A stretch of 47,618 nucleotides of DNA from Candidatus Omnitrophota bacterium (GCA_043803685.1 JAZDJU010000043.1:1-47618), one strand, 5' to 3'. Shown: positions 7,851 through 45,306, counted from the first letter of the stretch. Translations and numbers: made by a program. The notes: generated by a model not told the origin, from the sequence alone.

Positions 7851-9296
7851 TCAGTTCCCGGTCTTCCCCTTCAGTAGCGCCTTTCCACTTCGCGTTTTTT
7901 CCAGCAAGGCAACGCGTTCAAAGACCTTGGGAACTTTGTATTTTGACAGACGCCGATAGCAGAACTTCCGCAAGTCGGACTCATCAAATAGGTCACTCCC
8001 TTTCCTCAACAAAATCTTCGCGACAGGTAGTTGCCCGTAAGAAGGATGATCGACCCCATAGACTTGAACCTCCTCAATCGAGGGATATTGCTGCAGAACA
8101 TTTTCCACTTCCGCTGGGAATATTTTCATCCCCATAAAATTGATCATCTGTTTCTCTCTTCCCATAAGGAAAAGGAACCCCTCAGAATCCAAACGGCCCA
8201 GATCCCCTGTGTTGAACCACCCGTCCGGTTGTAACTCGTGACGTGTTTTCCAAGGAGTGAAGTAGGCATCAAACATGCCGGGGCCTTTTACCTGGATCAC
8301 CCCAATGCCGTCCCCATCCGCCCGATCAATCCTCATCTCAAAACCGGGGAGGATCTTACCGACAGAACCTCGCTTGGTCATTTCACCTGAACTGTTAAGA
8401 CATGGCAGACCGACTTCAATAATCCCGTAAGCTTGCGATAGCTCCACATTAAATTTCTCATAGAACGCACGCGCGATCACTTCGGAAAGACGCGTGGCGG
8501 TAGACACCGCCCGACGGACCCCTGCCAGCATTTCGCGAGTAAAAGCATCTGAGGTTGTCATGGCCTGGTAATGGAAAGGGGTCGCATACATCCATGTGGC
8601 TCTGTGGTCTTTCAGGCCTTTCCACAAAGCCTCCGGGAAATCACGATTGCAAAGAACGATCGTTGCGGATCTTCTTAAAAAAAGAAGGATCGTTACAACG
8701 AAGTGGTAAGCCATCGACAGAACCCAAATAATGATATCGCCCGCCTTCACATCCAATCCGGCTGCGGCAGCATCCGTCCTGGCTAAAATAGCCTCATGCG
8801 AGAGAACCACCCCCTTACTGGAACCGGTCGTCCCGGAGGTGAAACGAATAAAGGCCGGATTTAAAGCAAAATAAGCATCCGGATCGAAGGCTTGCTCCTT
8901 CAAAAAAAATACTGATAAATTCCGATCAAAAAAGGTTCCCGCCAAAACCGGATCCTTTGCCGCTTGCCGATAGATCGTTCTATCATAAATAAGAATATGA
9001 ACACGCATTTCCTTCAACAGGGTTTCGATCTCGAAATCCGAGGAGGGATAAGGCACCGGAACCATCACCGCACCCACTGCCAGCACCGCTAACGTCACGA
9101 CGATATAATCCGTTCCTTCATGACATAAAAGCGCGACCCTCTGTCCCTTTTCAATGCGTTGGCTTCTTAATTCACAAGCCATGCGGTCAACTCCGGCAAA
9201 GAGCTCACGATATGATATGCTCCCGGACACATCTTTCACCGCGGTGGCATGGCCGAAAAGCTCCGTTTCCCGTCTTATAACATCAACAATATTCAT
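7851..9296 (-). CDS. Adenylate-forming acyl-CoA/acyl-ACP ligase (ANL superfamily)
   Basis: FTSGTTGSSKG, AYGIIE, WFNTGDLG, YKVPK, TRSGK. Confidence 0.92.
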   Translation of the reverse strand: MNIVDVIRRETELFGHATAVKDVSGSISYRELFAGVDRMACELRSQRIEKGQRVALLCHEGTDYIVVTLAVLAVGAVMVPVPYPSSDFEIETLLKEMRVHILIYDRTIYRQAAKDPVLAGTFFDRNLSVFFLKEQAFDPDAYFALNPAFIRFTSGTTGSSKGVVLSHEAILARTDAAAAGLDVKAGDIIIWVLSMAYHFVVTILLFLRRSATIVLCNRDFPEALWKGLKDHRATWMYATPFHYQAMTTSDAFTREMLAGVRRAVSTATRLSEVIARAFYEKFNVELSQAYGIIEVGLPCLNSSGEMTKRGSVGKILPGFEMRIDRADGDGIGVIQVKGPGMFDAYFTPWKTRHELQPDGWFNTGDLGRLDSEGFLFLMGREKQMINFMGMKIFPAEVENVLQQYPSIEEVQVYGVDHPSYGQLPVAKILLRKGSDLFDESDLRKFCYRRLSKYKVPKVFERVALLEKTRSGKALLKGKTGN

Positions 9297-10498
9297 TTAT
9301 TTCTTCTTTGGAAAGAATCGCCCGTTCTCAAATATGAAACCGCCGCACAAGCACTTGCCTCCCCAAGAGACATACACGGCCCCATCACACGCGTAGAGGC
9401 TAGTGCGCGGCTCGTAGCAGAAATACACCGTCCCGCCGCAAAAAGATTTGAAACATCCCGCGAACAAAGGCACCCAAGCGGGATATCATAATGATCTCCT
9501 GGTTTGAGATATTGATAGCACGGTCCCTTCTCGCGATCCCAAAATTCGATCGGCCATGCATTTTTCACAACCCCGCCCTTGAATTTCCGCGCCTGCAAAA
9601 CATCTTCTTCCGTCAGAGTATATTCGCCCACCATCCGCAACCCCTCGCGTTCCACAATACTCGTTCCCATCTCCTGGATAGTCGAACTTCGCAACTCCGG
9701 GAGTTTCTCAGACAAATACTGATGCAGCATCACAGCTTTTCCTCTGACGTCTGCGAGATCCTCATCCGGAAGAACACTTATTTGGCAAACCCCCTCCCAC
9801 TCGCGTCCGCTCGGTGTGAATGTCGCAAATCTGTAATAAAGAGCCCAATTCTTTTCTTTCACCGCTTGGGCTATCCAATAGGGCACTTGAACATTAAGCA
9901 TCGCGTTCGAGCCCTGAAGATGTCCCAGATGAAAACTGTATCCTGCAAGCTGACGGTCCTCAAGCGGTGCTATTTCACAGGCGGCGCCACTCAACCGGAT
10001 GGCAGCACCCTCTCCGCTACAATCGATCACCGCGCCAGGGCGGACAACAGACTCACCCTCAGACCCGCGCAGTGTCACTTGGGAGATCTTATCGCCATCC
10101 CTCCGGACCGAAATAACCTGGTTCTTTCGGAGAAGTGTCACGGCGTCCTCAGCGGCCAGCATCAACTCAAAAACATCGCAGAGATCTTTGGGAGAAAACG
10201 GCAAGACATAGACCCGGCCCATTTTGACGATCCCCCTCCCGGGTTCTCTCGTCGTCAAGTGCTCGGAGACCTCCCGAGCGATACCCTCATTGAGCGTCGC
10301 GGAGGGAGTTTCAGCCCCATTCGCGTAAAAACCACAGACATAACGGTGCATACCCACAACAGCTGAACCGCCCAAAAAGTCATTTTTTTCGACAAGGATC
10401 GTTCTCGCTCCGCCACGCGCGGCCGCGATCGCCGCCGCCACCCCGGCCACCCCAGCACCCACCACAAGAACGTCACACCCTTTTGTTTCCGGTCTCAC
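9293..10498 (-). CDS. FAD-dependent oxidoreductase (FAD_oxidored-type family)
   Basis: DVLVVGAGVAG, IDCSGEG, NLFAAGRCISA...STRVMGPCMSLGEA. Confidence 0.88.
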   Translation of the reverse strand: MRPETKGCDVLVVGAGVAGVAAAIAAARGGARTILVEKNDFLGGSAVVGMHRYVCGFYANGAETPSATLNEGIAREVSEHLTTREPGRGIVKMGRVYVLPFSPKDLCDVFELMLAAEDAVTLLRKNQVISVRRDGDKISQVTLRGSEGESVVRPGAVIDCSGEGAAIRLSGAACEIAPLEDRQLAGYSFHLGHLQGSNAMLNVQVPYWIAQAVKEKNWALYYRFATFTPSGREWEGVCQISVLPDEDLADVRGKAVMLHQYLSEKLPELRSSTIQEMGTSIVEREGLRMVGEYTLTEEDVLQARKFKGGVVKNAWPIEFWDREKGPCYQYLKPGDHYDIPLGCLCSRDVSNLFAAGRCISATSRALASTRVMGPCMSLGEASACAAVSYLRTGDSFQRRNK

Positions 10499-11796
10499 AT
10501 TCGCCTCAGCTCCGTGACGATGAGGTTCGCCTCTTCGTCACTCAGCATCCCCTCTAAATAGGACAGCACGACATTTAACTTTCCTTGAAATTGCGTAAAA
10601 AAAACGCCCACACCAGGAGGATTGGGAATTCTTGGCAAGTGACGGATGTTTAATATCTTTTTATCCATAAAACGATCGGCCTTAAAGACCGTTTCCCCCA
10701 TGGACGAAAAAGAAAATGAGGGCGGCAGTTTCCGCAGAAAACTTTGAAGCATACGCTCAAAAAGGGGTAAAGGCAGTATCCTCATCAGCATACTGGCCTG
10801 CTGCAAAAGCCACGGCGTTTTATGCTTCATCTGTTCATAGAGCTGCGCTTTAATGGAGATTATCAACTTGGGCAGATCTTCAAATTCCCCGGCTCGGATC
10901 CTGAAAAAGAAAAAAGACAACTGGTTGAAAAAGATCTTGGCTGGCCCCGCCTCCGATGCGCGCATATCAATGCTGACAGGTATCACCCAATCAGAAGCTC
11001 CGGACTTGCCACTTGAAAGGACACGACTCATGGCCCTTACCGTCACGGCCAAAGCATAAGGCAGGAACATCAAATAACCGGCTTGCGCCGTCGCACGCTC
11101 GATGATCGAGGACGTTTGATCTCGATCGAAAGAGAAGGCCAGAAACCGGTTTGCGAATGCTTTCCCTGATATCTTGGGCGACGTACCGATCGGAAGGTTT
11201 TCCGTCAACTTTATAAAATGGCGATTGATCTTTTTACCCGCATCAAACTTTTCTGCCCACGGGTCCAGATAAGCGGGTTCCAAGGCGACCGGAATTCCCG
11301 CCGCGCATCCTTCGAAAGATGACTGAAACTTTTCCAGAAATAATTCAGCCCCTTGGCCATCAAATAAGCGATGATCGAACGTAAACCCTAAAAAACTTCT
11401 CCCCGCGCATGCCACATGCAACACCTTGAAATATTCGCGGGTCTTCTGAAAAGGCAGGTTCACATCCGACTCTAAGGCTCGATGAGCCTCTTGCTCATCG
11501 ACAACCTGTACGGTGCGAAGATGTAAGGGGATATTCGGTGCCGACGAGGCTATCTTCCAAAAAGGGGCCGGATTAAAATCCCGGGAAGGAGCGCCGCCCA
11601 GATAGGGACAACGCGTCAGAAAGGCTGACAACTGTTCTTTCAGGACTGATGTATGTACAAGACCTTCCAGTTCAAAAACCACCTGGAATTGATTGCCGCA
11701 GCCTGAAGCGCGCCGGGTCATACGATGGAGGACTTGGATCGCCCAATCGATCCCGGTAAGGTAGTGTTTCTTTGAGGAATACGGGATCGAGGCCAT
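10495..11796 (-). CDS. Stand-alone condensation-domain / CoA-dependent acyltransferase-fold protein
   Basis: FDHRLFDGQG (HxxxDG catalytic motif); IPVSIDMR second-lobe motif; 433 aa. Confidence 0.75.
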   Translation of the reverse strand: MASIPYSSKKHYLTGIDWAIQVLHRMTRRASGCGNQFQVVFELEGLVHTSVLKEQLSAFLTRCPYLGGAPSRDFNPAPFWKIASSAPNIPLHLRTVQVVDEQEAHRALESDVNLPFQKTREYFKVLHVACAGRSFLGFTFDHRLFDGQGAELFLEKFQSSFEGCAAGIPVALEPAYLDPWAEKFDAGKKINRHFIKLTENLPIGTSPKISGKAFANRFLAFSFDRDQTSSIIERATAQAGYLMFLPYALAVTVRAMSRVLSSGKSGASDWVIPVSIDMRASEAGPAKIFFNQLSFFFFRIRAGEFEDLPKLIISIKAQLYEQMKHKTPWLLQQASMLMRILPLPLFERMLQSFLRKLPPSFSFSSMGETVFKADRFMDKKILNIRHLPRIPNPPGVGVFFTQFQGKLNVVLSYLEGMLSDEEANLIVTELRRM

Positions 11797-12048
11797 TCAA
11801 CCCATCGCGCTGATTCGCCGGGCCAAAGAGCCCAATGTTTTCACATCCTTAGGGCCAATGCCCGACTCCATCAGCTTCAGGTCAAAGTTCTTCTCGATCA
11901 CTACAAAAAGCTCCACGAGACTCATGGAGTTAAAACCCAAAAGATGCAGAGGTTCGTCGGGAGAGATCTGAGACGATTCGAGAGACAGGATGATCCCTGT
12001 CTCTCGAATCAACGTTTTCAACACTTCTTCCACGCTTCTCAGAGCCAT
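11797..12048 (-). CDS. Acyl/peptidyl carrier protein 3 (atypical GFNSM motif)
   Basis: 83 aa from ATG 12048: PDEPLHLLGFNSMSLVELFVVIEKNFDL...TLGSLA. Confidence 0.82.
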   Translation of the reverse strand: MALRSVEEVLKTLIRETGIILSLESSQISPDEPLHLLGFNSMSLVELFVVIEKNFDLKLMESGIGPKDVKTLGSLARRISAMG

Positions 12049-12055
12049 CGCAATC

Positions 12056-12625
12056 CTATTTCTGGATAAACGCAACCAGCCCTTTATCATCGAATTGAAT
12101 TTCAAAATTGACGAATTTGCTTTTCCAATACGTCCATGTGGAATCCGCCAAAGATTTGGTCCGATGCGTCGGAGGGTAGCCATACGCCATGAGAACGGCA
12201 TCCTTGCTCATCCCCACCGCAAGCGTCCCTGCCTTGATATTTTCCTTTTCCATCGGAGAAAACTTCGCGTAGTCAGCGCCGTCGAGCACGGGACCCGTGG
12301 AAAAATACCGCTCGAACAACTCGTCGCCTGCAACATCCATGAATTTCGGGATGCGGATCAATTTACATTTGATCCCCGTACGGATATCCTTAAATTGAAT
12401 TTCGTTTTTCTTTCGTTTCAGGATCTCCACTTGCGACCCCACCGGCACCATTTCCCCCTTGTGGTAGTTGGTGGTAAAAATCTTATCCGGGAACTCATAC
12501 CAGATATTGACCTTCGTATAACATTTCTCCCCTGGCGCCTTCGCCGCAGAACCTGCGGGAATAAACAGCAAACCGGACAAGACAAAAAACGCGATCCCCA
12601 AAGCCATCTTGCTTAGCGTCTTCAT
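12056..12625 (-). CDS. Secreted hypothetical protein with a BamE/SmpA-like C-terminal motif
   Basis: Signal peptide ending in SAA; GMSKDAVLMAYGYPP...WTYW; SD AAGGAG. Confidence 0.75.
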   Translation of the reverse strand: MKTLSKMALGIAFFVLSGLLFIPAGSAAKAPGEKCYTKVNIWYEFPDKIFTTNYHKGEMVPVGSQVEILKRKKNEIQFKDIRTGIKCKLIRIPKFMDVAGDELFERYFSTGPVLDGADYAKFSPMEKENIKAGTLAVGMSKDAVLMAYGYPPTHRTKSLADSTWTYWKSKFVNFEIQFDDKGLVAFIQK

Positions 12626-12662: not shown

Positions 12663-13625
12663 CTACTTCTTCAATTTCACACAGCACTTCTGTTGATTAC
12701 AGTCATACTTGATGCAATGGATCTCCCGAATTTCCATCGGGTTTGTTTCCGCAATGGCGCCCGAAGCATAGGCCCTCTGATTTCGCAGCATCAATGCTGC
12801 CGCCACGCATTGGGAACCGCTTCCCGTCATCATACTTCCAAAAATCGGAGAAAAATCAGCAACAGGAATCCCGGGAGCAACGGTCACATCATTCTCGATA
12901 ATGCGCATATCCGGGCATTCCTCAACGCCATCTTCTGCATTAAATGAAACGTCTGAAATAACGCCGTACTTCCTATGGGCGGGATCCGATGTTACCAGAA
13001 AAAAAACACCTCCTTCACCGGGTCCCACCGAGGTCTTACTGCCACAAGCCGAAGCCTGAGAACTTTGACTATAAATAGATTCGAACACTTGGCCGCATTC
13101 TTCCACGCATCCGACAAGAACGCGCTCGCACCGGCCTTCTGCCATCCAAGCCCCCGCAAGGAGAAGAGCTTCCTGAAAAGCAAAATCGAACTGAGTCACC
13201 GTAAGCGTCGGGCCCGTGCATTTTAAGACTTTCGCGATGTAGGACGCCGCGGCATTATGGATCGAATGAGAAAATGTGGTCGGGGAAACACTTGAGTCCC
13301 CGTAATCAAGAATGTCATCCAAAAAACGGAACGTTGTCGCGTGAGGTCCTAGCCCCGTGCAAAGAATGACCCCCATCGCGCCGTTCGAAGCACCACCGTC
13401 TCGGATCGCATCATGGGCCGCCAGTACGGCGATTTTACTGAACCGATCGGCCCGCCGGATATCCCACAAAACTTCCCGGTCCTCGAGAGCTTCCGGAGGA
13501 ATACGATGACAGGATCCGGATACTTTCGGAGGGATGCCACTTCCATTCAGCGCCTGTTCAAACCGCGCGAGACCCCTCCCCTGCGAACACAAAACTCCGA
13601 TCCCGGCAATGTTCATCGGGCCCAT
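12663..13625 (-). CDS. Ketosynthase-like chain-length-factor subunit (non-catalytic)
   Basis: RRADRFSKIAVLAA, SPTTFSHSIHNAAA; the catalytic Cys region reads TVTQFDFAF; no HGTxT. Confidence 0.85.
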   Translation of the reverse strand: MGPMNIAGIGVLCSQGRGLARFEQALNGSGIPPKVSGSCHRIPPEALEDREVLWDIRRADRFSKIAVLAAHDAIRDGGASNGAMGVILCTGLGPHATTFRFLDDILDYGDSSVSPTTFSHSIHNAAASYIAKVLKCTGPTLTVTQFDFAFQEALLLAGAWMAEGRCERVLVGCVEECGQVFESIYSQSSQASACGSKTSVGPGEGGVFFLVTSDPAHRKYGVISDVSFNAEDGVEECPDMRIIENDVTVAPGIPVADFSPIFGSMMTGSGSQCVAAALMLRNQRAYASGAIAETNPMEIREIHCIKYDCNQQKCCVKLKK

Positions 13626-14806
13626 GGAGCTTCTCCGTCAGACTTCGCGCATTCGATCACAAGAGCCGCATTATTCCCGCCGAAACCTAAAGACGTTGAG
13701 ACAGCATAATGCCCCGTCACGGCTGTTTTCGTACGTGTCGGCGCCATAGCGATTCCATCATCAAGCGTTTGAAAACCCGCGCACGGAGGGATCCATCCTT
13801 CATAAAGTGCCGCGGCACTGAACGCGGCCTCCAGGCCTCCTGCCGCGCCAAGCGTGTGTCCCGTAAATCCTTTGGTGGAATAGAACGGAACCTCTTTTCC
13901 AAAAACCCTGGAAAGAACTGCCCCCTCCACGCGATCATTGTCTTGCGTCGCGGTCCCATGAGCATTCACAAAAGAAACATCTTGAGCGCGTATCCCCGCT
14001 TCTGATAAAGCCCCGCGAATGGCTTTTTCCAAGCCCTCGCCTTGCGGAGCAGGAGCCGTCAAATGATGAGCGTCATTGGCCGAGCCGTATCCGCAAAGCC
14101 ACAGGGAAACTTTTTTCCTTCGCGCGTGAGCGCTTTTTCCTGTCTCAAGCACCAAAATCCCTACCCCCTCTCCTAAATTCAGGCCACTCCGGTCTTTATC
14201 GAAAGGCGCGCACAAAGAATCGCTAAGGATCCCCAGCGATCCGAACCCGCACAAAGGCACACGATTCAATTCATCAGCACCGCCTGCAATGGCGACATCG
14301 CACAAGCCCGCTCGCAACCATGACAAAGCAACGCCGATCGCATCAGCACCCGAAGTGCATGCGTTCACCACAGTCAGCGACGGGCCTTGCGTTTTCAGAG
14401 CCGAGGCGACAGCCCCGGAAAGATTGCCGTTCAAATAGCGGGTAACCGGATCCATGGAAACCTTCCCGGATTCACGATAAGTCCTGTAAAATTCAATATC
14501 ATTAAGCTGACTTGCGACCGTCGTCCCAAGACAAACTCCAACACGCCGGGTCGCCAGATCACTCCCCAAGCCGGCTGACCGCAACGCCTCTCCCACGGCA
14601 GACAAACAAAGACCCAACGATCTCATTTGAGATTGATCTTTTCCCTGAAGAAAAGACTTGGCTTCGAAAACAGGATAGCGGAGAGGGGTCGGGAACAAAG
14701 TGACAGGTCCCGCATTTCGTTTCCCCTGCTGAAACGTCTCGAGTGTTTCATGGATATTGCGGCCGGCCGCAGAAAGAACGCCGAGCCCCGTGATCCCGAC
14801 CTTCAT
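13613..14806 (-). CDS. Beta-ketoacyl-ACP synthase (KS3)
   Basis: VNACTSG, NAHGTAT, GHTLGAAG catalytic triad; alternative start 14830. Confidence 0.93.
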   Translation of the reverse strand: MKVGITGLGVLSAAGRNIHETLETFQQGKRNAGPVTLFPTPLRYPVFEAKSFLQGKDQSQMRSLGLCLSAVGEALRSAGLGSDLATRRVGVCLGTTVASQLNDIEFYRTYRESGKVSMDPVTRYLNGNLSGAVASALKTQGPSLTVVNACTSGADAIGVALSWLRAGLCDVAIAGGADELNRVPLCGFGSLGILSDSLCAPFDKDRSGLNLGEGVGILVLETGKSAHARRKKVSLWLCGYGSANDAHHLTAPAPQGEGLEKAIRGALSEAGIRAQDVSFVNAHGTATQDNDRVEGAVLSRVFGKEVPFYSTKGFTGHTLGAAGGLEAAFSAAALYEGWIPPCAGFQTLDDGIAMAPTRTKTAVTGHYAVSTSLGFGGNNAALVIECAKSDGEAPWAR

Positions 14807-14810
14807 CGGT

Positions 14811-15095
14811 TTATTTCCTGGTACTTTCATAGATAAAACGCGAAAGGGTATCTATGGAATAGAATATCTCCCGCCCCCGTTTCATGTCCCGGACATCTAG
14901 CCCGAAATTCCGTTGGAGCAAAACAACGATCTCCACAGCATCGAGCGAATCCAGTCCCAACCCGTCGCCAAAAAGGATCTCATCATCTTTGATCTTGAGG
15001 GGATCCAGCTCATTCAAAAAAGCCAGATTGCTGACAAGCAATTCTTTCAGCTTTTTGCGTATCGTTTCGAGATCCTCACCTTTACTGATCGTCAT
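14811..15095 (-). CDS. Acyl carrier protein 2 (aryl-polyene-type)
   Basis: LFGDGLGLDSLDAVE; SD AAGGAG before ATG 15095. Confidence 0.92.
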   Translation of the reverse strand: MTISKGEDLETIRKKLKELLVSNLAFLNELDPLKIKDDEILFGDGLGLDSLDAVEIVVLLQRNFGLDVRDMKRGREIFYSIDTLSRFIYESTRK

Positions 15096-16023
15096 CCACA
15101 GTCTCCTTTTGCTTGGACCATACATTATGGAACATGAAACACTGATAAGGGAACTTGTTCACAAAGGTCTCCAGCATCGATGCGTAGGCTCCGGCCCATC
15201 GCTGAAGCTGACTTTTTTTATCCTCACCTTTCGCATAAGATGGATATAGGACATTCGACATATCTACGACATACTTACGATCCGACTCCTTTTGGGTCAA
15301 GAGCACCACCACAGGACATCCTGCCGCTGCCGCAATACTAAAAGCCCCGTAGGGGAAATAGGCCTCCGCCCCCAAAAAAGGAACGCCGACGGTATCAAAC
15401 GTATAACTACGGTCCCCCATAATGGAGACCCCATGTCCCTCTTCAAGCGCCTTCATGATCTCAAGCACACCTCCGAGATATTGCTCCGGAGAAATAATTT
15501 CAAGGTGATCGTCCGCATCTCCGACCTTCAAGGTGTCACGAACGGCCCTATTATCCTCTGGCCTCATCACAAGATAAACCTTTTTCCCAAGACACCTTAA
15601 AGCGGTCAGCCCCACCTGCCAATTGCCCACGTGAGCCGTGAGAAGAATAATGCCATGAGACGCATTTTGAACCAACGATTTAAACTGCTCGTAACCACGC
15701 ACCTGGATATCGAACAGCTCCGGCTTCCGCGCTACCACATACCGGTCGATCAGATGCCGCCCCTGGTTCAAAAATAATCGATAAACGTGAAGGTATTGCC
15801 TGATCTTGTTTTCGCCCCTAAATCGCTTTTCGACATAGGCCAAAGCGGCCTGGACAGCCTTTTGATCGAATAACAAATAATGAAGGCATACAAAATATAA
15901 AAAACTGTAAGCTCCACGCAGGCCAAAAATCCGAAATGTTATTTCAAAGAAACCTATCCCGAAAGCATTGCCTCTTCGCTTAACGTGGATCTTGCGGCCC
16001 GCCTCAGCCTGAAGCTCATCCAT
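15082..16023 (-). CDS. LpxL-like lipid acyltransferase
   Basis: LLTAHVGNWQ, IMGDR, FPYGAF, PYQCFMF; start uncertain (16023/16035). Confidence 0.85.
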   Translation of the reverse strand: MDELQAEAGRKIHVKRRGNAFGIGFFEITFRIFGLRGAYSFLYFVCLHYLLFDQKAVQAALAYVEKRFRGENKIRQYLHVYRLFLNQGRHLIDRYVVARKPELFDIQVRGYEQFKSLVQNASHGIILLTAHVGNWQVGLTALRCLGKKVYLVMRPEDNRAVRDTLKVGDADDHLEIISPEQYLGGVLEIMKALEEGHGVSIMGDRSYTFDTVGVPFLGAEAYFPYGAFSIAAAAGCPVVVLLTQKESDRKYVVDMSNVLYPSYAKGEDKKSQLQRWAGAYASMLETFVNKFPYQCFMFHNVWSKQKETVDDDQ

Positions 16024-18602: not shown

Positions 18603-19873
18603 GATCGAAGCCCCGGACCTTTAGCAAGTCCCCACCCGTGGTGACGATCCAACTTCACAGGCTGATAGGAACCATCCGCGACTTCCTTCTTGATCACATC
18701 GAGATACAACTTCCCCATACGAAGTTCCTTGCTGCTATCAGCATAAAAAGCCTTCCAGGCATATTCATACATTTTCTCAAGGGAATCGACGCTCATCTTT
18801 TTCGGCTTAAAAACCACCTCGCCCCCGGTGTAATGTCGCCAATCGTTATGAAGGATCCTCTTTTCATTTTCCAACTTTGTCCTGATCGGCGAGTGCATGA
18901 AGGGGGTCAAAATAGTGAACTCCGCGAGATCGAGATCGATCTCCAACAAAAAGTCGACCAGTCGCTTGATCGCATCCTCGTCCTGATCATCGGTCCCGAG
19001 AATGATCGTCCCCTCCACCCCGATCCCCCTTTCTTTCAAACGCTGCACGCGGCGGCGGATATGGTCGGAGGTGTCGATGATCGCCTGGTACACATACCAA
19101 CAGCCCGCTTTCGCCGCCAGATCCAGGATCTCATCATGATCCTTGATCGGATGCGAAACCCACTTTTTCTTGAGAGGCGCGATCGCCCTAAACAGTTCCT
19201 TTTCCCATGCGTCATCCTGGGCCAACGAGTTATCCACAAAAAAAAGACGGTTGTTCTCCAGGGCGGAAAGCTCTTCCACCACACGTTGGATGGGCCGCGG
19301 CCGGAACTTTTTCCCTCCTAAATATCCGACACAACACGGGAAACAATCGAAACGGCACCCTCGTGACGCATGAACCAGATCCACCATCTGCACTCCGCGG
19401 AAATTGTACAACTCTCGTTTAAGGATATCGCGGCGAGCGGGGCCCACCAAATTCAGATCCGGATAATCAAACCGGTAGTCGTAGATCTTTTTCAATTCCC
19501 CACGTTCAAGATCCGAAAGAACCTGACCGATCCGTCCCTCAGCTTCTCCGAGAAATACGGAATCCGCATGCGGCATCGTCTCTTCCGCATGCAGAACCGT
19601 TGCGATCCCCCCAAAAAGAACCTTTTTCCCTTGAGCCCTGAAAATATCCGCGATCTCCCAAGCCCTGGGCATTTGACAGGTCAGCATGACGGACAATGCG
19701 ATCAGGTCCGCTTCTTCATCAAAACGAACCTCCTCGACATGCTCATCACAAAAAGAGACCTCAACGTCTTCGGGCAACGCCGCCGCAAACACAACCGGAC
19801 CATGAGGCGGGAGATTGAACTCCGGCTGGTTTTTGAGTTTGGGCCACTTCGGATAGATGAGTTTGATCTTCAT
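18599..19873 (-). CDS. B12-binding radical SAM protein
   Basis: N-terminal cobalamin-binding-like region (GGIAT...VFLGEAE); ASRGCRFDCFPC. Confidence 0.88.
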   Translation of the reverse strand: MKIKLIYPKWPKLKNQPEFNLPPHGPVVFAAALPEDVEVSFCDEHVEEVRFDEEADLIALSVMLTCQMPRAWEIADIFRAQGKKVLFGGIATVLHAEETMPHADSVFLGEAEGRIGQVLSDLERGELKKIYDYRFDYPDLNLVGPARRDILKRELYNFRGVQMVDLVHASRGCRFDCFPCCVGYLGGKKFRPRPIQRVVEELSALENNRLFFVDNSLAQDDAWEKELFRAIAPLKKKWVSHPIKDHDEILDLAAKAGCWYVYQAIIDTSDHIRRRVQRLKERGIGVEGTIILGTDDQDEDAIKRLVDFLLEIDLDLAEFTILTPFMHSPIRTKLENEKRILHNDWRHYTGGEVVFKPKKMSVDSLEKMYEYAWKAFYADSSKELRMGKLYLDVIKKEVADGSYQPVKLDRHHGWGLAKGPGLRS

Positions 19874-20454
19874 AAACGATTTCCCGATATCACCTGACAG
19901 GTGGCCGTTTTTCCGTCATGAACGACCGCGAGCAGCGTATGCGCTTCCTTGTTTTGGATCATTTGTTGGGCATGCGCCAACAATGACGCTTCAGGCATTT
20001 CTGGATCCCGCAAATACAGAAGCAGCCCCTGCAATCCAAAATGGATGGCTGCCTCCGAGAGAGGGCTCGTGGGCAAGGTGTAAATGAAGAGATTCCCGCG
20101 GGCAAGCTTTCTGCCATGTTCTGCATAATCCCGGAAGTAAGCCAGATTCGAAACTAAGGCGCCCTCCGGATTCGTCCCCAACAGGCCGATATCCTGCTTT
20201 TTCCCTTCAGCATAAGTAATGCCCGCGTCATGCAAGGCGAGAGCGACCGAAAGAGTCACCCGACGCGAAGCCTCGTCAAATCTGGCGAAGTTCTTAACCG
20301 GATACGCGAAGACGGCGTCCTTCAGCAACTGCGCGTAGAGTGACCGCAAGTCATCATACTGCCATTGAAGACTTTTCTGGTCGCAGCCACACTGAGTTTC
20401 CTGGACCCAACCGCGTCCTTTGATCCTCGAGATCATAGTTTTACTCTCTTGCAT
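19870..20454 (-). CDS. Short KS-N-terminal-only chain-length-factor-like protein
   Basis: NFARFDEASR, GNLFIYTLPTSPLSEAAIHFGLQG; 194 aa with no catalytic triad. Confidence 0.78.
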   Translation of the reverse strand: MQESKTMISRIKGRGWVQETQCGCDQKSLQWQYDDLRSLYAQLLKDAVFAYPVKNFARFDEASRRVTLSVALALHDAGITYAEGKKQDIGLLGTNPEGALVSNLAYFRDYAEHGRKLARGNLFIYTLPTSPLSEAAIHFGLQGLLLYLRDPEMPEASLLAHAQQMIQNKEAHTLLAVVHDGKTATCQVISGNRL

Positions 20455-20464
20455 AGAGGGACCG

Positions 20465-20878
20465 CTATTTTAGAATTTTATCCAAAGTCTCCCGGACCAT
20501 CACCTCGGGTTCCGCGCGCTGCATCGACGGACGATAGGATCTTCCGGAGGCGATCAAGGACTTGTCGCTGTTCTTTCTGAGCTCGATGTCAAGACTCAGC
20601 ATGTAATTGGTGATATCCCACATCCAATGATCCACGTAAGTGACCAGCGTATTCGTTCCCTGAGGAACATCCTGTTCTTCTCCCGAAGTGACCTTGTAAC
20701 CCCGGCTTGCCAGATCGCTCGCAATAACGGTCTCAAGATGCCGTTTGTCCGGCGCGAAGTGAACGGCGTACACAGAGCCAAGATTTTTCACATCCTGATT
20801 CGGCGCCACCTTCGAAGACACACTTGCGCATCCAAAAAACATCGTCAAACACAGCACCATCAACAAATGTTTCTTCAT
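20465..20878 (-). CDS. Lipoprotein, unknown function
   Basis: Lipobox FFGC; TYVDHWMWDITNYM; SD AAGGAG. Confidence 0.82.
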   Translation of the reverse strand: MKKHLLMVLCLTMFFGCASVSSKVAPNQDVKNLGSVYAVHFAPDKRHLETVIASDLASRGYKVTSGEEQDVPQGTNTLVTYVDHWMWDITNYMLSLDIELRKNSDKSLIASGRSYRPSMQRAEPEVMVRETLDKILK

Positions 20879-20895: not shown

Positions 20896-21594
20896 TTAAT
20901 TTCCCGTTTTGTTATCAGTACTGACATCGTGGCTCAGCTCAAGCCCCTGCAACTTAGTCTTCGCCTCCGCTGTAAAATCATCGACTGCCAACCTCAACAC
21001 TTTTTTCCAATTAGCGTCACTGGCAACCTGAAAGTTCTCCTCTGCTGTGGCCATAATAACCACAGGGTTATCCTTTCCGGGCACGCTGATAGTGTTTGTT
21101 GTGGTGATCTCGCTCTTAAGCGAAATCGCCCAAAAGCCAGGCGCAAAATAACTCCAGAATTTATCGATGGCGATATCCATTGTGATCGCGTCAGGCTTTG
21201 TCTCTTCCCGCTTATCCGTCACATCATAACCCAAGGAGTTCAAAGCATTTCTTGTTGCCGCACGGACGATCATTTCCACGTTCTGTCCCTCATCAAGCAT
21301 AATGTCCCCCAGGGCTTTCCCAAAACAATTACGCTTTCGTCCTATGGCTCTGCTTTTGAGCGCCGGTGTGGCATTTTTAAGTTCGTCAAAACCTAAAGAC
21401 GGGATATCGGGAGTCGAAGGTTGATCCTGGAATTGACGGTTGTCGATGATTGAGCGTATATATACTTGCTTGCCATTGGGCTTGATTAAACTCTCAGATG
21501 GCACCGGGACCTCAATAAAAGAACGGTTCAAAGTACAACCGGCAGAAGCAACCACAAGTCCGACCCATAAACAGACCTTTACGAACTTAGCCAT
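20896..21594 (-). CDS. Lipoprotein (YajG-like), unknown function
   Basis: Lipobox SAGC; VYIRSIIDNRQF, AIGRKRN.FGKALGD; SD AAGGAG before ATG 21594. Confidence 0.8.
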   Translation of the reverse strand: MAKFVKVCLWVGLVVASAGCTLNRSFIEVPVPSESLIKPNGKQVYIRSIIDNRQFQDQPSTPDIPSLGFDELKNATPALKSRAIGRKRNCFGKALGDIMLDEGQNVEMIVRAATRNALNSLGYDVTDKREETKPDAITMDIAIDKFWSYFAPGFWAISLKSEITTTNTISVPGKDNPVVIMATAEENFQVASDANWKKVLRLAVDDFTAEAKTKLQGLELSHDVSTDNKTGN

Positions 21595-21722
21595 AAATGT
21601 CTCCTTCACTGAGCGTTCTTCAAAACTAATGTTGCGTTATCCCTCGACCGAATCAGCGGTGTTTCCCAAAGTAATGTTTTTTTCAACGCTCTTTTCCCAA
21701 ATAAAGACTATCCCGTGTTTTC

Positions 21723-22172
21723 TCATTCTCCTTTATAGTTTTTCAACAATTCGTCAATGACCGGATCCATCTTGGTCTTTGTTCCCTGCCACTTCATTAA
21801 TGAGAAGCCCCCCTTAAGCCTTAAATGGTATTCCGCAGAAGCAACAGTGAGTCCATTTCTAAATAAGTTCAATTCGGCGACAGACAAATAGGGCGCAAAA
21901 TCCCAGGACCGCAAAGCGGTGTAGGTTAGGGTATATTCACATTTGTCAGGTTTTGTTCCCGAATAAACTTCGGTGGAAATTCCATGCCTGTTGAACCCCG
22001 CCTCCACAACCCTTACAAAATCAGTCAGGGTCACTTTTGGATTTTTTTCAATGCATACATGCTGCAGACGCGGCGTGGCATCCACGGGCCGAACTTTGAT
22101 CGAAGTGCATCCGCTTATCACGGACATCAGCACAAGCATCATACTCAGAGTCGAATTCCATTTCCCGATCAT
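21723..22172 (-). CDS. Lipoprotein (Sbal_3080-like family)
   Basis: Lipobox ISGC; VCIEKNPKV, TYTALRSWDFAPYLS, KWQGTKTKMDPVID; SD AGGGAGG before ATG 22172. Family call is from memory. Confidence 0.8.
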   Translation of the reverse strand: MIGKWNSTLSMMLVLMSVISGCTSIKVRPVDATPRLQHVCIEKNPKVTLTDFVRVVEAGFNRHGISTEVYSGTKPDKCEYTLTYTALRSWDFAPYLSVAELNLFRNGLTVASAEYHLRLKGGFSLMKWQGTKTKMDPVIDELLKNYKGE

Positions 22173-22194
22173 CGCTATTTCCTCCCTTGGTTGT

Positions 22195-23337
22195 TCATTC
22201 TTCACAGCTCCTTAAAATGAGCGCCGCGTTAATTCCACCGAAACCAGAGTTGTTAACCAGAACAACGTTTTTTTTCAACGCCCTTTTTTCTAATGAAACC
22301 CATCCCTCTGCCTCAGGATCAACATTTCGCGTCCCTACCGTGGGAGGGATCATTCGTTCCCGTAAAACTTGAAGCGCCACAATTGTCTCGATCAAGCCGG
22401 CAGCTCCCATCGTGTGTCCCACCGCCCCTTTGATCGAATAAAGCGGGACAGAATGATCTGTAAAAACACTTTGGTAAGCCTTCATCTCCATAGAATCGTT
22501 GTAGAGAGTCCCTGTCCCGTGACCGGAGATACATCCCACCTCAGTACGTGACACGCCCGCCACCGCCAAAGCTTCCTGGATGGCACGCCTTAAGCCACTC
22601 CCATCGCGCACGGGCCCCGTCATATGATTGGCATCGCCCGCTACCGCCCAACCGACGATCTCTCCAAGAATGGTGCGGCCTTCCTTTTCAGCTCTTCTCT
22701 GGCTCATGAGCAAAATAAAACCCGCGCCTTCTCCCAAGCTTAAACCTTCCCTGCTTGTATCAAAAGGTCTGGCCGATTCAGGATCGAGCGCCATAAGAGA
22801 GGAAAAACCGGCAAAGACAAATTCGCTGACACAGTCACAGGCAACGATCAGAACACATTCCTCTTTGCCGGAACGTATCCTTGCCGCGCCTTGAGCGATC
22901 GCGACACTTGCGGAGGAGCAAGCCGCCGAAACGATCATTCCCTCTCCCGTCGCGCCGATCAAATTTCTGACCTTCTCTAGCAAAAACTCTGGCTGGCTAC
23001 GCTCCGCGCCACTGCTATTTTCCAACACAGCGGTTTCTAAATGATCGATCTCTCCGGTCGTTGTCGCCAGGAACAGAGCCGCATCTTTTGGGATCTGCGC
23101 TAGAGAGTCGCCCAGGAGCGGCTTTAACATCTGCCACACAAGGGATTCTCCCTGTTTTACTTCAAGCCCCGGGATCAAGGCGGCATTCTGACTTTGAAAT
23201 GCTCCTCCGGCTTGAAAGCGGTGGCATTCCCGGATCGATGAACGGTTCGAGAGAAGCCCCTGCCAACACACATCCACTCCCCGACCGTAGGAAGTCACGA
23301 TATCGGACGCGACAACACAAACTTTGTTCTCCGTCAC
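22195..23337 (-). CDS. Beta-ketoacyl-ACP synthase (KS2)
   Basis: SAACSSA, SGHGTGT, GHTMGAAG; GTG start overlaps the thioesterase stop. Confidence 0.92.
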   Translation of the reverse strand: MTENKVCVVASDIVTSYGRGVDVCWQGLLSNRSSIRECHRFQAGGAFQSQNAALIPGLEVKQGESLVWQMLKPLLGDSLAQIPKDAALFLATTTGEIDHLETAVLENSSGAERSQPEFLLEKVRNLIGATGEGMIVSAACSSASVAIAQGAARIRSGKEECVLIVACDCVSEFVFAGFSSLMALDPESARPFDTSREGLSLGEGAGFILLMSQRRAEKEGRTILGEIVGWAVAGDANHMTGPVRDGSGLRRAIQEALAVAGVSRTEVGCISGHGTGTLYNDSMEMKAYQSVFTDHSVPLYSIKGAVGHTMGAAGLIETIVALQVLRERMIPPTVGTRNVDPEAEGWVSLEKRALKKNVVLVNNSGFGGINAALILRSCEE

Positions 23338-23827: not shown

Positions 23828-24205
23828 TTACGATACGATTTGGATCACCGCTTCAAGCATCGCGATCTTCTTAGAGTCCTTCATGCACGAAGTCCTGATC
23901 ACTATTTTCCCGTCTTGTTTCGACAGCTCCTGACATTCCATCAGAAGGTCTTCCTCCGGAAACACAGGCGCGATCAATTTTGCCGCCGTTAATTCCACTA
24001 ATCGAATGGATCTTTTATGATAGGCCTTATACAACTCCAACATCGCCTGAACCAAACACACCCCGGGCAAGATCGGTTTCCCCGGAAAGTGTCCCTGAAA
24101 ACCCACGAAGGATGATGGGAACGAAAAGTGGGCGCTGAAGACACCTTCCGTATTCATCTCATAATGTTTCATGCTGTCATGGATCTCACGCTGGATCTGA
24201 CTCAC
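23828..24205 (-). CDS. FabZ/ApeI-like 3-hydroxyacyl-ACP dehydratase
   Basis: FQGHFPGKPILPGV. Confidence 0.88.
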   Translation of the reverse strand: MSQIQREIHDSMKHYEMNTEGVFSAHFSFPSSFVGFQGHFPGKPILPGVCLVQAMLELYKAYHKRSIRLVELTAAKLIAPVFPEEDLLMECQELSKQDGKIVIRTSCMKDSKKIAMLEAVIQIVS

Positions 24206-24876
24206 GACCGGATCTCCTTTAACCGCAACGTCAGCTTATAGTGGTAAGGATAGTGTTCGAAATATACGCCTCCGGGAAACACCTTCCCCTTCTGAGAACG
24301 ATATTCGTAATACCGTACGCGCCACTCGACATGTTCCGCTTTCGTAAATCTCTTTTCGACGAGGATCGCTTCCGGGCCCGCAAAAACATAGTCCAGCACT
24401 CCGTCTTCATGCTTCTCTGAAAAAATGACGCTCTTCTTTTCCTTCCGGCTTGAAGCCTCGGGAGAAGGCGTTCGATCCCAATAGATCCTGCGCACATCCT
24501 CCGTAACAGCCCGGCACACATCTCCTTTTTGGGCTAATTCCGGAACCAGGACTTCACATTTCAAGTTTTTGGAATCACCCGAGATCTCGATCATTTTCAT
24601 ACCCGCGGGATTGAGTCCGACCATTGAGAATTGATCCTTCAAGCGGTCGATCTGGGTGACGCCAAGGCCCAACAGATCATGTCCACGGTAGGAAAAGATC
24701 ATCGACTCGGTCATTTGCCAGGTTTGGGGCAACCTCGATTCAAATGCTTCCTTCACCCTTTGCGGATCCCAACCTGTCACAGGAACATATTCCGTACGCT
24801 TAAAAGGACTCCCCGCGCAGGCCGACAGCCCCAAAACCATTCCCGTCATCGCTATCGCCATCAAGAAAGGCCTCAT
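24202..24876 (-). CDS. Lipoprotein, DUF3261-like (as in aryl polyene clusters)
   Basis: True start ATG 24876: MRPFLMAIAMTGMVLGLSAC (lipobox); the longer ORF-track version overlaps MMPL. Confidence 0.75.
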   Translation of the reverse strand: MRPFLMAIAMTGMVLGLSACAGSPFKRTEYVPVTGWDPQRVKEAFESRLPQTWQMTESMIFSYRGHDLLGLGVTQIDRLKDQFSMVGLNPAGMKMIEISGDSKNLKCEVLVPELAQKGDVCRAVTEDVRRIYWDRTPSPEASSRKEKKSVIFSEKHEDGVLDYVFAGPEAILVEKRFTKAEHVEWRVRYYEYRSQKGKVFPGGVYFEHYPYHYKLTLRLKEIRS

Positions 24877-27278: not shown

Positions 27279-27948
27279 GGGGCTTCGCCTCCCAGGTCTT
27301 ATCCTCCAGGGCCGCATCCAGAACCGTATCCTTGAACATGAGCAGAGTCCTGTCCCCGGATTTTTCATCCATCTGGATCTGTTCGATGTATCTTAGATCC
27401 TTCTGAAAGGTCACCGTGATCTTCGTCATGACTCGGGATACGATCGTGGACTCGCGAGGCACAAACTCTAGAGAAACCGGGTCTTGGGAAAGGATCCGGA
27501 TCTGATATTCCGCCAACATCTGCAGGTAGGGTCCATAAAACCATTTCTGGATCTGTTCCACAATGATATCCACCGCGTTACTTCCAAACACTGACAACTC
27601 CCGGACTTTGTCCGTATCCTCATCCCATTGAAAAATCTTCTTTCCCCGCATCACGATCGCGTAATGCATCGGGGCCTCCACGCGCCAGGCAAAGCGCATC
27701 GGAGTCTTTTGTATCGCAACGGTCCCTTTCAGCATGATTTTATTCTGAAAGATCTTCAGTTCTTTTTCCTGGACGAATTGAGCCGTCAGCGTACGTATCG
27801 CCCCCATCTTTTGGTCCAGCTCCGTCAAGATCGACCGCACGGATACTTGAGGGTCCTTTGCTTCATCAGCCCAAGACTGCGGCTGCGCACCTCCAGCGAA
27901 AAGCATGCCCAGCAAAAGAAATGTCCCCCATCGAATCGGGAACTTCAT
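27271..27948 (-). CDS. LolA-like periplasmic lipid/lipoprotein carrier
   Basis: Signal peptide; LTAQFVQEK...G...FAWRVEAP; EKSGDRTLLMF. Confidence 0.85.
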   Translation of the reverse strand: MKFPIRWGTFLLLGMLFAGGAQPQSWADEAKDPQVSVRSILTELDQKMGAIRTLTAQFVQEKELKIFQNKIMLKGTVAIQKTPMRFAWRVEAPMHYAIVMRGKKIFQWDEDTDKVRELSVFGSNAVDIIVEQIQKWFYGPYLQMLAEYQIRILSQDPVSLEFVPRESTIVSRVMTKITVTFQKDLRYIEQIQMDEKSGDRTLLMFKDTVLDAALEDKTWEAKPRE

Positions 27949-31498: not shown

Positions 31499-31777
31499 TT
31501 ACCCCTGCTTCCCGACATCCGGCACAAGACCTTCCGCTTTCAGAGTCAGCACGAAATGGTGCACATCCCCCAGGGTCCGGATCTGGCGAACCCTTTCATC
31601 ATCCCGGATCCGGACTTTAAACTGCTTCTGCAACGCCACGATCAGATCCACAATGTCGAGGCTATCGAGACCCAGATCCTCAAAGATCTTCATGTCGGGC
31701 TTCAGCTTGGCCCGCTCAATTTCAAAAGAATCCGCGAAAACAGAATTGACCCGGTCTACCACATCCTGATCGTTCAT
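31499..31777 (-). CDS. Acyl carrier protein 1
   Basis: EDLGLDSLDIVDL. Confidence 0.93.
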   Translation of the reverse strand: MNDQDVVDRVNSVFADSFEIERAKLKPDMKIFEDLGLDSLDIVDLIVALQKQFKVRIRDDERVRQIRTLGDVHHFVLTLKAEGLVPDVGKQG

Positions 31778-37192: not shown

Positions 37193-37555
37193 TTAGCCAA
37201 TATGCTTCTTGACCATGGCGACCAGCTCCTCGGGGTCGAACGGCTTTGAAAAACCACCGACGGCGCCGCACTCCCTGACCCTCGCTTCAAGGGTCTGGGT
37301 GGTCGCCGAGATCAGAATGACCGGAATGTGCTTTATTTTTTCATCTTTTTTGAGTAGCTTGGTGACCTCATCGCCGTCGATCTCCGGAAGATAGATATCC
37401 AGAATGATCAGATCCGGTGTTTTTTGACGGGCCCGATCCAGAGCCTCCCGGCCGTCCGCAGCCCCGGAGACCTCATAACCCGTCTTTTTAAGAAGCATCA
37501 CTGTCAGTTCGAGCAGCTCGGGTTCGTCATCAGCCACCAGGATCTTCTTTTTCAT
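37193..37555 (-). CDS. Single-domain response regulator (REC)
   Basis: ILVADDE, DLIILDIYLPEIDG, SKPF. Confidence 0.93.
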   Translation of the reverse strand: MKKKILVADDEPELLELTVMLLKKTGYEVSGAADGREALDRARQKTPDLIILDIYLPEIDGDEVTKLLKKDEKIKHIPVILISATTQTLEARVRECGAVGGFSKPFDPEELVAMVKKHIG

Positions 37556-40242: not shown

Positions 40243-40253
40243 TTCTTGATTTT

Positions 40254-40670: not shown

Positions 40671-40686
40671 GTAACCGGCCTCCTTT

Positions 40687-41133: not shown

Positions 41134-41134
41134 A

Positions 41135-44044: not shown

Positions 44045-44151
44045 ATTCCCCCCCAAAAAATAAAAAAACCCGGGATCTGCATTGCTGCAGCACCCCGGGC
44101 TTGAACATAACCAACATGAAAACATTTACTCCGGAACCGACACTTCACCAT
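44041..44151 (-). CDS. Putative leader peptide/uORF, 36 aa (MVKCRFRSKCFHVGYVQARGAAAMQIPGFFIFWGGI)
   Basis: SD GAGGAG upstream; reads through the terminator hairpin; its TGA overlaps the kinase ATG (ATGA). Confidence 0.4.
   Translation of the reverse strand: MVKCRFRSKCFHVGYVQARGAAAMQIPGFFIFWGGI
44055..44099 (-). terminator. Intrinsic terminator/attenuator immediately upstream of the kinase start
   Basis: CCCGGGGT-g-CTGCA-GCAA-TGCAG-ATCCCGGG followed by T7-A-T6, ending about 10 nt before the ATG. Confidence 0.75.
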
Positions 44152-45239: not shown

Positions 45240-45306
45240 AATTGGGGCTCTCTCCAAGCTACCTTACGAGAGAAAAAAGCTTCGACTGTCCAAAGGAGGT
45301 TTGACC

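Follow-up and report, generated by a model that had tools for sequence, protein, structure and literature searches.

The stretch of DNA analyzed here, 47,618 nucleotides (nt) from Candidatus Omnitrophota bacterium (GCA_043803685.1, JAZDJU010000043.1:1-47618; called the window below), carries an aryl-polyene-like lipid operon that ends in four genes, encoding the acyl carrier protein (ACP) ACP3, a standalone condensation-fold protein referred to here as CLK, a flavin adenine dinucleotide (FAD)-dependent oxidoreductase (the flavoprotein) and an adenylate-forming (ANL) acid ligase. Our analysis confirmed that ACP3-CLK-flavoprotein-ligase is a real, translationally coupled, widely conserved and unnamed unit that closes the operon. 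The gene set lies far beyond chance, given that its order is repeated in 80 loci of other genomes. As to what the unit does, we give roughly even chances to the reading that the four genes are a self-contained cassette for the activation, modification and transfer of an acyl group on its own carrier, appended to a "ladderane-type," aryl-polyene-like lipid cluster.

A coupled four-gene unit at the end of the operon

A first-pass annotation, made by a model that had only the DNA to go by, had described four tightly coupled genes at the end of the cluster, and both their coordinates and their order proved exact. All are on the minus strand, with overlapping or abutting junctions (Table 1): the ligase and flavoprotein genes overlap by 4 nt, as do the flavoprotein and CLK genes, and the ATG of the CLK gene directly abuts the stop codon of ACP3. 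The operon ends with the ligase, and a convergent plus-strand alcohol dehydrogenase (ADH) gene stops at 7836. The numbering used in that annotation implied three carrier proteins, and ACP1, ACP2 and ACP3 are indeed all present in the cluster.

Table 1. Positions of the four cassette genes, the other carrier proteins and the neighboring genes in the window (aa, amino acids; E, expect value)
Feature	Position	Strand	Evidence and remarks
ACP3, 83-aa carrier protein	11797-12048	-	PF00550, E 1.1e-7; LGFNSM
CLK, 433-aa standalone condensation-fold protein, unnamed family	10495-11796	-	FDHRLFDGQG; predicted fold
FAD-dependent oxidoreductase (flavoprotein), 401 aa	9293-10498	-	PF12831, E 1.1e-76
ANL acid ligase, 481 aa, FadD/MatB/MenE type	7851-9296	-	PF00501, E 4.2e-54; PF13193, E 5.6e-16; last operon gene
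189-aa protein with hydrophobic N terminus, between CLF and ACP3	12056-12625	-	weak BamE-domain match (PF04355, E 0.0036); variable insert
Chain-length-factor-like ketosynthase partner (CLF)	12663-13625	-	Pfam, NCBIfam; context only, outside the four-gene set
Ketosynthase (KS)	13613-14830	-	Pfam, NCBIfam; usual upstream neighbor, context only, outside the four-gene set
ACP2, carrier protein	14811-15125		
ACP1, carrier protein	31499-31777		LGLDSL

Recurrence of the unit in other genomes

One genome per GTDB species was scanned with the peptide pattern FDH[RL][LI][FL]DAx[GN], taken from the CLK alignment, and the best 80 of the 178 loci (species genomes) found to encode a CLK relative were examined. 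The pattern excludes the DGQG variant of the window, and the closest relatives of the window CLK, like any "DG" subgroup, lie outside this sample. According to their record titles, 29 of the 80 loci came from Nitrospirota/Thermodesulfovibrionia, 16 were of Desulfobacterota type, 10 belonged to Verrucomicrobiota/Planctomycetes-Verrucomicrobia-Chlamydiae (PVC)/Kiritimatiellales/Victivallales, 9 to Omnitrophota and 2 to Planctomycetota, with one each from Spirochaetales, Acidobacteriota and Methanosarcinales, 3 entitled "Proteobacteria" or "Pseudomonadota bacterium" and 8 unclassified. Most host lineages of the cassette are known mainly as anaerobes.

Synteny was assessed by tblastn of 30 window proteins against the 80 loci, counting only those with enough flanking DNA. 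An ACP3 homologue was found directly upstream of CLK, on the same strand and with a median gap of 27 nt, in 76 of 77 loci (the exception being L051), and downstream of CLK the flavoprotein was found in 61 of 67 loci (exceptions L010, L025, L051, L052, L070 and L075) and the ligase, at a distance of up to 7 kb, in 50 of 53 (exceptions L051, L060 and L070). Co-occurrence elsewhere was the check that the first-pass annotation had set for its own proposal, and the four genes do recur together. Upstream of the cassette, CLF was present in 52 of 61 loci and KS in 45 of 54, and a homologue of the BamE-like gene was present in 16 of 67.

The surroundings of the unit varied. In L010, the ACP3-CLK-ligase trio stands beside recJ and other housekeeping genes (recJ, secDF and tgt), and the trio is found again in L025 and L052. 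In L013, L019 and L029, the complete ACP3-CLK-flavoprotein-ligase set lies, with a class I methyltransferase gene, amid glycoside hydrolase and transporter genes, and the cassettes of L001 and L005 run divergently to the other half of the cluster. The earlier description of the genes as a tailoring module of the cluster is thus right for the usual arrangement, next to KS/CLF, but not for the Verrucomicrobiota/PVC loci in which the cassette stands alone among unrelated genes.

What the first-pass annotation missed is a frequent fifth member. In 32 of the 56 loci holding both flavoprotein and ligase genes, the two are at least 1 kb apart, and the gap holds a gene for a B12-binding radical S-adenosylmethionine (SAM) enzyme (Pfam). 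Of 56 loci offering 4.5 kb or more of room, 41 have an orthologue of this gene no more than 8 kb downstream of CLK, either between flavoprotein and ligase, after the ligase or in divergent orientation, and these orthologues are 41 to 100% identical to the copy in L015 (L015:12508-13941); L019 and L029 have two divergent B12 radical-SAM genes close to the cassette. No orthologue of the cassette-specific gene was present in the window, the cassette of which is a reduced version lacking this member. The closest NCBIfam model was that of the hopanoid C-3 methylase HpnR (E 4.7e-69), but at 233 bits, where the cut-off is 650, the enzyme is not HpnR itself; the likeness points to lipid-type substrates.

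Three further features of these loci were observed. The class I SAM methyltransferase gene that follows the ligase in Verrucomicrobiota-type loci (L013:13915-14640, L019:9371-10105 and L029:4175-4909) gave generic UbiE/ArsM-like matches and weak CMAS matches, and it had a homologue in five loci and none in the window. Many Nitrospirota-type loci (e.g., L064:6387-7443) contain at least about 1 kb of extra DNA between ACP2 and KS, without a counterpart in the window or in the Desulfobacterota loci. The locus labeled as a Methanosarcinales archaeon (L024, CAZSRD010000011.1) holds a full bacterial-type cluster, from B12 radical-SAM genes, GT2, LpxL, ACP2, KS and CLF to the cassette, and both mis-binning and gene transfer are possible explanations of its archaeal label.

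CLK represents an unnamed family with a predicted condensation-domain fold

CLK matched no Pfam or NCBIfam family at E ≤0.001. At E ≤10, the sole Pfam match was to a 27-residue active-site stretch of the 2-oxoacid dehydrogenase E2 acyltransferases, with none to PF00668, the condensation (C)-domain family, and among PDB sequences, too, the E2 acyltransferase active-site stretch was all that matched, over 30 residues. In a set of 5.8 billion proteins, 66 (including the query) were related to CLK at E ≤0.001, the other 65 being at most 45% identical to it. All of these relatives are unnamed or called "hypothetical protein," two of the 66 carry a precomputed PF00668 label, and their lengths range from 408 to 472 aa, setting aside fragment-length entries of 174 to 389 aa. 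A profile built from 48 of the relatives retrieved 1271 representative proteins at E ≤1e-3, of which 836 remained at a threshold of 1e-10 and 423 at 1e-30. When the 48 members were themselves compared with known families at E ≤1, matches were obtained to PF00668 for 17 (best E, 8.1e-6), to the BAHD Transferase family for 8 and to the E2 family for 6, while PapA_C matched none and WS_DGAT_C a single member, at E 0.029. CLK thus belongs to a large and coherent family, as yet unnamed, whose members are standalone C-fold proteins served by a carrier of their own.

No fused relative was seen among proteins of 759 to 2165 aa, which is weak evidence, and in the 519-aa CLK open reading frame (ORF) of L051 the N-terminal extension had no Pfam match. 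Among the Atlas clusters, one of 575 aa, with a template modeling (TM) score of 0.90 to CLK and a PP-binding domain in 98% of its members, would be an ACP-C fusion; this could not be confirmed.

The putative active-site motif of CLK reads F-D-H142-R-L-F-D146-G, and within it D141, H142 and D146 were invariant in the 48 aligned sequences (DHxxxD). Relative to the HHxxxDG motif, the first His is replaced in the CLK family by the invariant Asp (D141), and the second His corresponds to H142. The Gly that follows the motif Asp is present in the window CLK (FDHRLFDGQG) and is Ala in the family consensus (FDHRLFDA-G). The DHxxxD motif aligns with the DHRxxDG active-site stretch of the E2 acyltransferases (E 0.015).

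The AlphaFold2 model of CLK, of high confidence (predicted local distance difference test [pLDDT], 90.7; predicted TM score [pTM], 0.92), has the two-lobed, V-shaped, chloramphenicol-acetyltransferase-like fold of C domains. Foldseek comparison with the PDB gave 319 matches at E ≤0.001, and the top 48 listed were almost all condensation, epimerization (E), heterocyclization (Cy) or C-like chains, with TM scores of 0.54 to 0.76. The best of them was AzeD from Pseudomonas aeruginosa (8S6L), with E 4.5e-21, a TM score of 0.76 by both lengths and 15% identity, followed by C, E and Cy domains of SrfA-C, TycA, PvdL, HMWP2, LgrA and the CDA synthetase (TM, 0.54 to 0.70); the fungal acetyltransferase Tri3 also matched, at a TM score of 0.69. 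AzeD did not appear in phmmer or profile searches of PDB sequences with CLK at E ≤10. Clusters bearing PapA_C and WS/DGAT domains were among the Atlas structural neighbors (TM, 0.78 to 0.83), and we treat them as leads only.

On the strength of the modeled fold, CLK belongs to the fold superfamily of nonribosomal peptide synthetase (NRPS) condensation domains, outside the curated PF00668 threshold. The condensation/acyltransferase fold with an HxxxD motif that had been ascribed to this 433-aa protein is accordingly supported, by the C-domain fold match as well as by the invariant His-x3-Asp. The structural comparison that the first-pass annotation had recommended, against C domains, PapA5 and WS/DGAT, places the protein in the C-domain superfamily, but the nearest solved structure is a dehydratase, and PapA5-type proteins appear only among the Atlas leads. 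In the accessible part of its description, AzeD, with the motif PHxxxDG, founds a "C_standalone" clade, about a third of which varies the first motif His, and its role in an NRPS pathway is the dehydration of a free bicyclic carbamate (bioRxiv 10.64898/2026.07.17.738954).

ACP3 is an ordinary carrier with a predicted docking site on CLK

ACP3 reached 32.4 bits in PF00550 (cut-off, 20.8), with Ser41, within LGFNSM, as the predicted phosphopantetheine site. In an alignment of 28 ACP3 orthologues, Gly38 and Ser41 were invariant and the consensus was LGxDSLGFVELLV. Judged by its sequence, ACP3 is an ordinary carrier and GFNSM a local D-to-N, L-to-M variant of the normal GxDSL motif, not a feature of the family, so that the label "atypical carrier" given to it earlier describes a local substitution only. 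Its top NCBIfam match was the cispentacin carrier AmcB (E 2.2e-6), at 27.8 bits against a cut-off of 80, and KS/CLF likewise matched AmcF/AmcG below the cut-off (236.9 versus 325). Membership in the cispentacin (Amc) family was rejected, all NCBIfam scores being far below their cut-offs.

Co-folding of CLK with ACP3 gave a score of 0.79, compared with 0.00 for the best of three controls; in the benchmark of the method, 116 of 157 solved complexes attained the mark, as did 2 of 215 mismatched pairs. The three runs shared at least 92% of their contacts, with partner pLDDT values of at least 83. In the models, the Ser41 region of ACP3 lies on CLK residues 240 to 246 and 316 to 324, with Ser41 itself against residues 242 to 246 and 319, and the contact stretches of CLK include the invariant or near-invariant residues G240, P246, Q318, Y320 and Q322. 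The models thus support docking of ACP3 on CLK.

The ligase resembles acyl-CoA synthetases

The ligase matched PF00501 with 184 bits (cut-off, 29.9) and PF13193 with 59.7 bits (cut-off, 24.5), and its translation contains the stretches FTSGTTGSSKG, TGD and SGK, within which we take TSGTTGSSKG, TGD and SGK to be the ANL core motifs. In NCBIfam, the 25 best of its 108 matches were all acyl- or aryl-coenzyme A (CoA) ligases, headed by CoA ligases of the long-chain, malonyl, o-succinylbenzoate and FadD types, with every score well short of its equivalog cut-off (e.g., 253 versus 476). The best PDB matches were the malonyl-CoA synthetase structures 4gxq/4fuq (E, 2.4e-43 to ca. 2.5e-43), and others among the best were feruloyl-CoA synthetase, FadD5, FadD13, MenE and oxalate-CoA ligase, while the adenylation (A) domain of LgrA reached only 1.1e-27. 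By these similarities, the protein appears to be an acid ligase resembling acyl-CoA synthetases rather than an amino-acid-activating NRPS A domain. Of the original description as an NRPS-like A or ANL ligase, the placement in the ANL superfamily stands, but the closest relatives are acyl-CoA ligases and not A domains.

The flavoprotein is fused to the ligase in two loci

The flavoprotein matched PF12831 with 259.2 bits (cut-off, 27) over residues 9 to 397 of 401. This is a family without an established chemistry, and no label finer than flavin redox enzyme is justified. The best fold match of its AlphaFold2 model (pLDDT, 94.5) in the PDB was 3oz2, which is geranylgeranyl-reductase (GGR)-like, at a TM score of 0.52, and the fold also matched group A monooxygenases, flavin halogenases and fumarate reductases (TM, 0.38 to 0.51). 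Matches to PDB sequences were confined to the N-terminal FAD/dinucleotide-binding motif, the geranylgeranyl reductase family model TIGR02032 matched only residues 9 to 43 (25.1 bits; cut-off, 158.8), and the Atlas neighbors were only generic PF12831 clusters. The "Ox" assigned to this gene is therefore too specific: no solved relative is close, and reduction or dehydrogenation is as likely as oxidation, because most host genomes carry the names of mainly anaerobic lineages.

Two of the 56 loci with both genes have flavoprotein and ligase joined in a single ORF with PF12831, PF00501 and PF13193 domains (L012:3431-6061, 876 aa; L030:11278-13887, 869 aa). We therefore argue that the flavoprotein acts on the substrate or the product of the ligase.

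A proposed mechanism and its rivals

In the scheme that we propose, the FadD/MatB/MenE-type ligase would adenylate a free carboxylic acid and load it as a thioester on holo-ACP3. The PF12831 flavoprotein, working with the ligase, would then alter the redox state of the acyl group, either on the free acid or on acyl-ACP3; given the lineages concerned, C=C reduction or dehydrogenation would be likelier than an O2-dependent oxidation. In most of the other genomes, and not in the window, the HpnR-like B12 radical-SAM enzyme would also act, probably as a C-methylase. Finally, CLK would dock ACP3 and, using the invariant His142 and Asp146, hand the acyl group to a hydroxyl or an amine, probably on the lipid made by the remainder of the cluster. 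That the ACP3-CLK-ligase trio occurs in unrelated surroundings, with no other loading or release enzyme in sight, argues that it is the ligase that charges ACP3 and CLK that empties it.

Several observations weigh against this scheme. The flavoprotein resembles reductases, monooxygenases, halogenases and fumarate reductases equally poorly. The ligase, most similar to CoA ligases, could form a CoA thioester instead of charging ACP3. By sequence, the window CLK falls into none of the curated acyltransferase or condensation families, and AzeD, its nearest solved structure, is no transferase but dehydrates a free molecule. The co-folding used alignments of our own, and complexes of peptidyl carrier proteins (PCP) with C domains have already been solved, so that the high score may reflect likeness to such complexes rather than binding. 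Moreover, the flavoprotein is missing in 6 of 67 loci and the KS/CLF neighbors in 9 of 61, and therefore both the redox step and the attachment to the large cluster are optional.

Part of this evidence could be accommodated if the cassette both primed and unloaded a second type II polyketide synthase (PKS)-like line: the ligase would load an unusual starter acid on ACP3, KS/CLF would extend it, the flavoprotein would adjust it and CLK would release the finished chain. KS/CLF directly upstream of most cassettes, the Amc models at the top of the ACP3 and KS/CLF matches and the malonate, o-succinylbenzoate and oxalate enzymes among the best solved relatives of the ligase would all fit, and the loading of the starter can be likened to that by ApeH, whose type of direct ACP loading is described in the accessible text of PMC8253772, and by cispentacin AmcH. 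We consider such a line unlikely, though: the loci without KS/CLF include free-standing operons, ACP2, directly before KS, is the more obvious carrier for it, and the Amc scores fall far short of their cut-offs. Quite unlikely, in our estimate, is that CLK transfers nothing and instead dehydrates, isomerizes or cyclizes a chain tethered to ACP3, the product leaving via the cluster thioesterase or the LpxL/PlsC-type acyltransferases. Enzymes of the LpxL, PlsC and 4HBT types, which could serve for transfer or release, are already encoded in the cluster, the standalone C-family dehydratase AzeD is the best structural match, and the Asp that replaces the first motif His in CLK (family DHRLFDA) recalls the AzeD clade, about a third of which varies this residue according to the part of the preprint available (bioRxiv 10.64898/2026.07.17.738954). 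Yet AzeD acts without a dedicated carrier while CLK is paired with ACP3 almost without exception, the 15% identity between them escaped sequence and profile searches of the PDB, and near the ACP3-CLK-ligase trios there is no other release enzyme.

Only a slim chance is left, in our view, for a ligase that is an ordinary acyl-CoA synthetase, with the flavoprotein acting at the level of the CoA ester or free acid, the two feeding or recycling precursors while ACP3 is charged otherwise, for example by malonyl transfer; the four genes would then share an operon and not substrates. The strict ACP3-CLK-ligase trio in unrelated neighborhoods speaks against such a division, as do the conservation of the order across Nitrospirota, Desulfobacterota, Omnitrophota, Verrucomicrobiota/PVC and Planctomycetota loci and the NCBIfam CoA-ligase scores far below the cut-offs, even though all the best matches of the ligase are CoA ligases and the flavoprotein is fused to the ligase and not to ACP3 or CLK.

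The surrounding lipid cluster and other genes in the window

The cassette closes a co-oriented run of minus-strand genes, from ca. 35255 down to 7851, that makes up an aryl-polyene/flexirubin-like lipid cluster according to Pfam and NCBIfam. The same databases identify in it a FabG-type reductase, a PaaK/FlxY-type ligase, three KS paralogues and the CLF-like protein, a FabZ-like dehydratase, a 4HBT thioesterase, PlsC- and LpxL-type acyltransferases and GT2-DUF2062, as well as LolA, an MMPL/RND transporter and DUF3261. The cluster has, in addition, extras of the "ladderane-type" or Desulfotalea type, namely, genes for a CrtI-like flavoprotein and for radical-SAM enzymes, one of the SPASM type and two that bind B12. 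Of the B12-binding pair, one matches the model TIGR04072, "lipid biosynthesis B12-binding/radical SAM protein" (E 2e-184; 613 bits; cut-off, 360).

Within the cluster, the DUF3261 ORF (24202-25326, minus strand) and the MMPL/RND ORF (24876-27368, minus strand) overlap by ca. 450 nt in different frames, and the true start of the DUF3261 gene probably lies downstream of the first start codon. Two genes for Sbal_3080-family lipoproteins are found on the minus strand, at 20465-20878 and 21723-22205, with matches of E 4.4e-36 (124 bits; cut-off, 80) and E 6e-10 (39.6 bits, below the cut-off). They are flanked by proteins without a family at 19870-20454 and 20896-21609, the first of which has a very weak match to the KS N terminus (E 0.083).

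Upstream of the cluster, 37193-44125 (minus strand) encodes two multi-PAS histidine kinases, of 896 aa (with an additional receiver domain) and 996 aa, and three single-domain response regulators, which may regulate the lipid cluster. At 45301-47616 (plus strand, running off the end of the window), pyridine-nucleotide disulfide oxidoreductase, rhodanese, TusA and DsrE-like domains are combined in one protein, which looks like a sulfur-carrier fusion of the CoA-disulfide-reductase type.

Comparison with known systems and significance

The cassette is a variant of the logic in which a discrete ligase, a carrier and a C-type enzyme work as a set, and it is a conserved add-on to "ladderane-type," aryl polyene (APE)-like clusters. 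VibE-VibB-VibH of vibriobactin biosynthesis and SgcC1-SgcC2-SgcC5 of C-1027 biosynthesis, the latter with flavoenzymes acting at the carrier level, are reportedly sets of this kind. They share with the cassette the combination of a standalone adenylating enzyme, a carrier and a C-fold enzyme, with a flavoenzyme in the Sgc case, and the fold and predicted docking of CLK fit this pattern. Differences from these sets are the ligase, of acyl-CoA-synthetase type and not an A domain for amino or aryl acids, the PF12831 flavoprotein, the DHxxxD(G/A) motif of CLK in place of HHxxxDG and its position outside the PF00668 threshold, and the context, a lipid cluster of mainly anaerobic lineages. In mycobacteria, an acyl chain on a carrier is supplied by an adenylating FadD enzyme and esterified onto a lipid by a PapA5-type acyltransferase with the C fold; the proposed logic is alike, but CLK has no PapA_C match and there is no type I PKS. 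AzeD, as far as its accessible description goes, resembles CLK as a standalone C-family protein of the same length (433 versus 433 aa) with an altered first motif His, and the two differ in the motif itself (PHxxxDG versus DHxxxDG) and in the free substrate of AzeD as opposed to the ACP3 partner of CLK.

With the hallmarks given in the accessible parts of the papers on "ladderane-type" or Desulfotalea-type clusters (PMC2649909) and on APE clusters (PMC8253772), the operon has in common TIGR04072, a CrtI-like desaturase, a PaaK/FlxY-type ligase, KS paralogues, LolA, MMPL, DUF3261 and GT2. The first-pass annotation had held that canonical APE clusters lack such a set, and in the one that we could compare this is so: Table 1 of PMC8253772, listing ApeA-R of Escherichia coli CFT073, has a single acyl-ACP synthetase, lacks both a C-like protein and a PF12831 flavoprotein, and offers no counterpart of the four genes. 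The rest of the operon has many Ape-like functions, and it also carries radical-SAM and CrtI-like genes that are missing from the E. coli set; the four-gene cassette is a further addition. In the available text of the ladderane comparative paper, "condensation" occurs only as the KS reaction (Rattray 2009, PMC2649909). A literature search on TIGR04072, PF12831 or a standalone condensation/ACP/acyl-AMP ligase lipid set found no description of the cassette, which is no proof that none exists.

The accessible parts of the relevant papers report "ladderane-type" clusters, with unknown products, annotated in many non-anammox phyla (PMC9902471, PMC2649909), and expressed "ladderane" biosynthetic gene clusters, whose function is not known, from groups that include Desulfobacterota, Verrucomicrobiota, Planctomycetota and Omnitrophota (PMC9902471). 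The cassette offers a tractable biochemical entry into such clusters, in the form of four soluble-looking proteins of 83 to 481 aa, and with the CLK family the condensation superfamily, as known so far, extends past NRPS pathways and those for mycobacterial lipids. Should CLK prove a plain transferase that makes esters or amides from an ordinary fatty acid, the result would be a useful annotation and no surprise. A bolder possibility, which we put forward as distinctly improbable, is that the CLK family is a new functional class of carrier-dependent C-fold enzymes, from mainly anaerobic bacterial lineages, which, together with the flavoprotein and the HpnR-like radical-SAM enzyme, installs an unusual acyl unit (methyl-branched, partly reduced or cyclized) on the "ladderane-type" product or, like AzeD, performs a nontransfer chemistry on an ACP-tethered polyene. 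Were this true, the cassette would be a handle on what these widespread clusters make outside the anammox bacteria.

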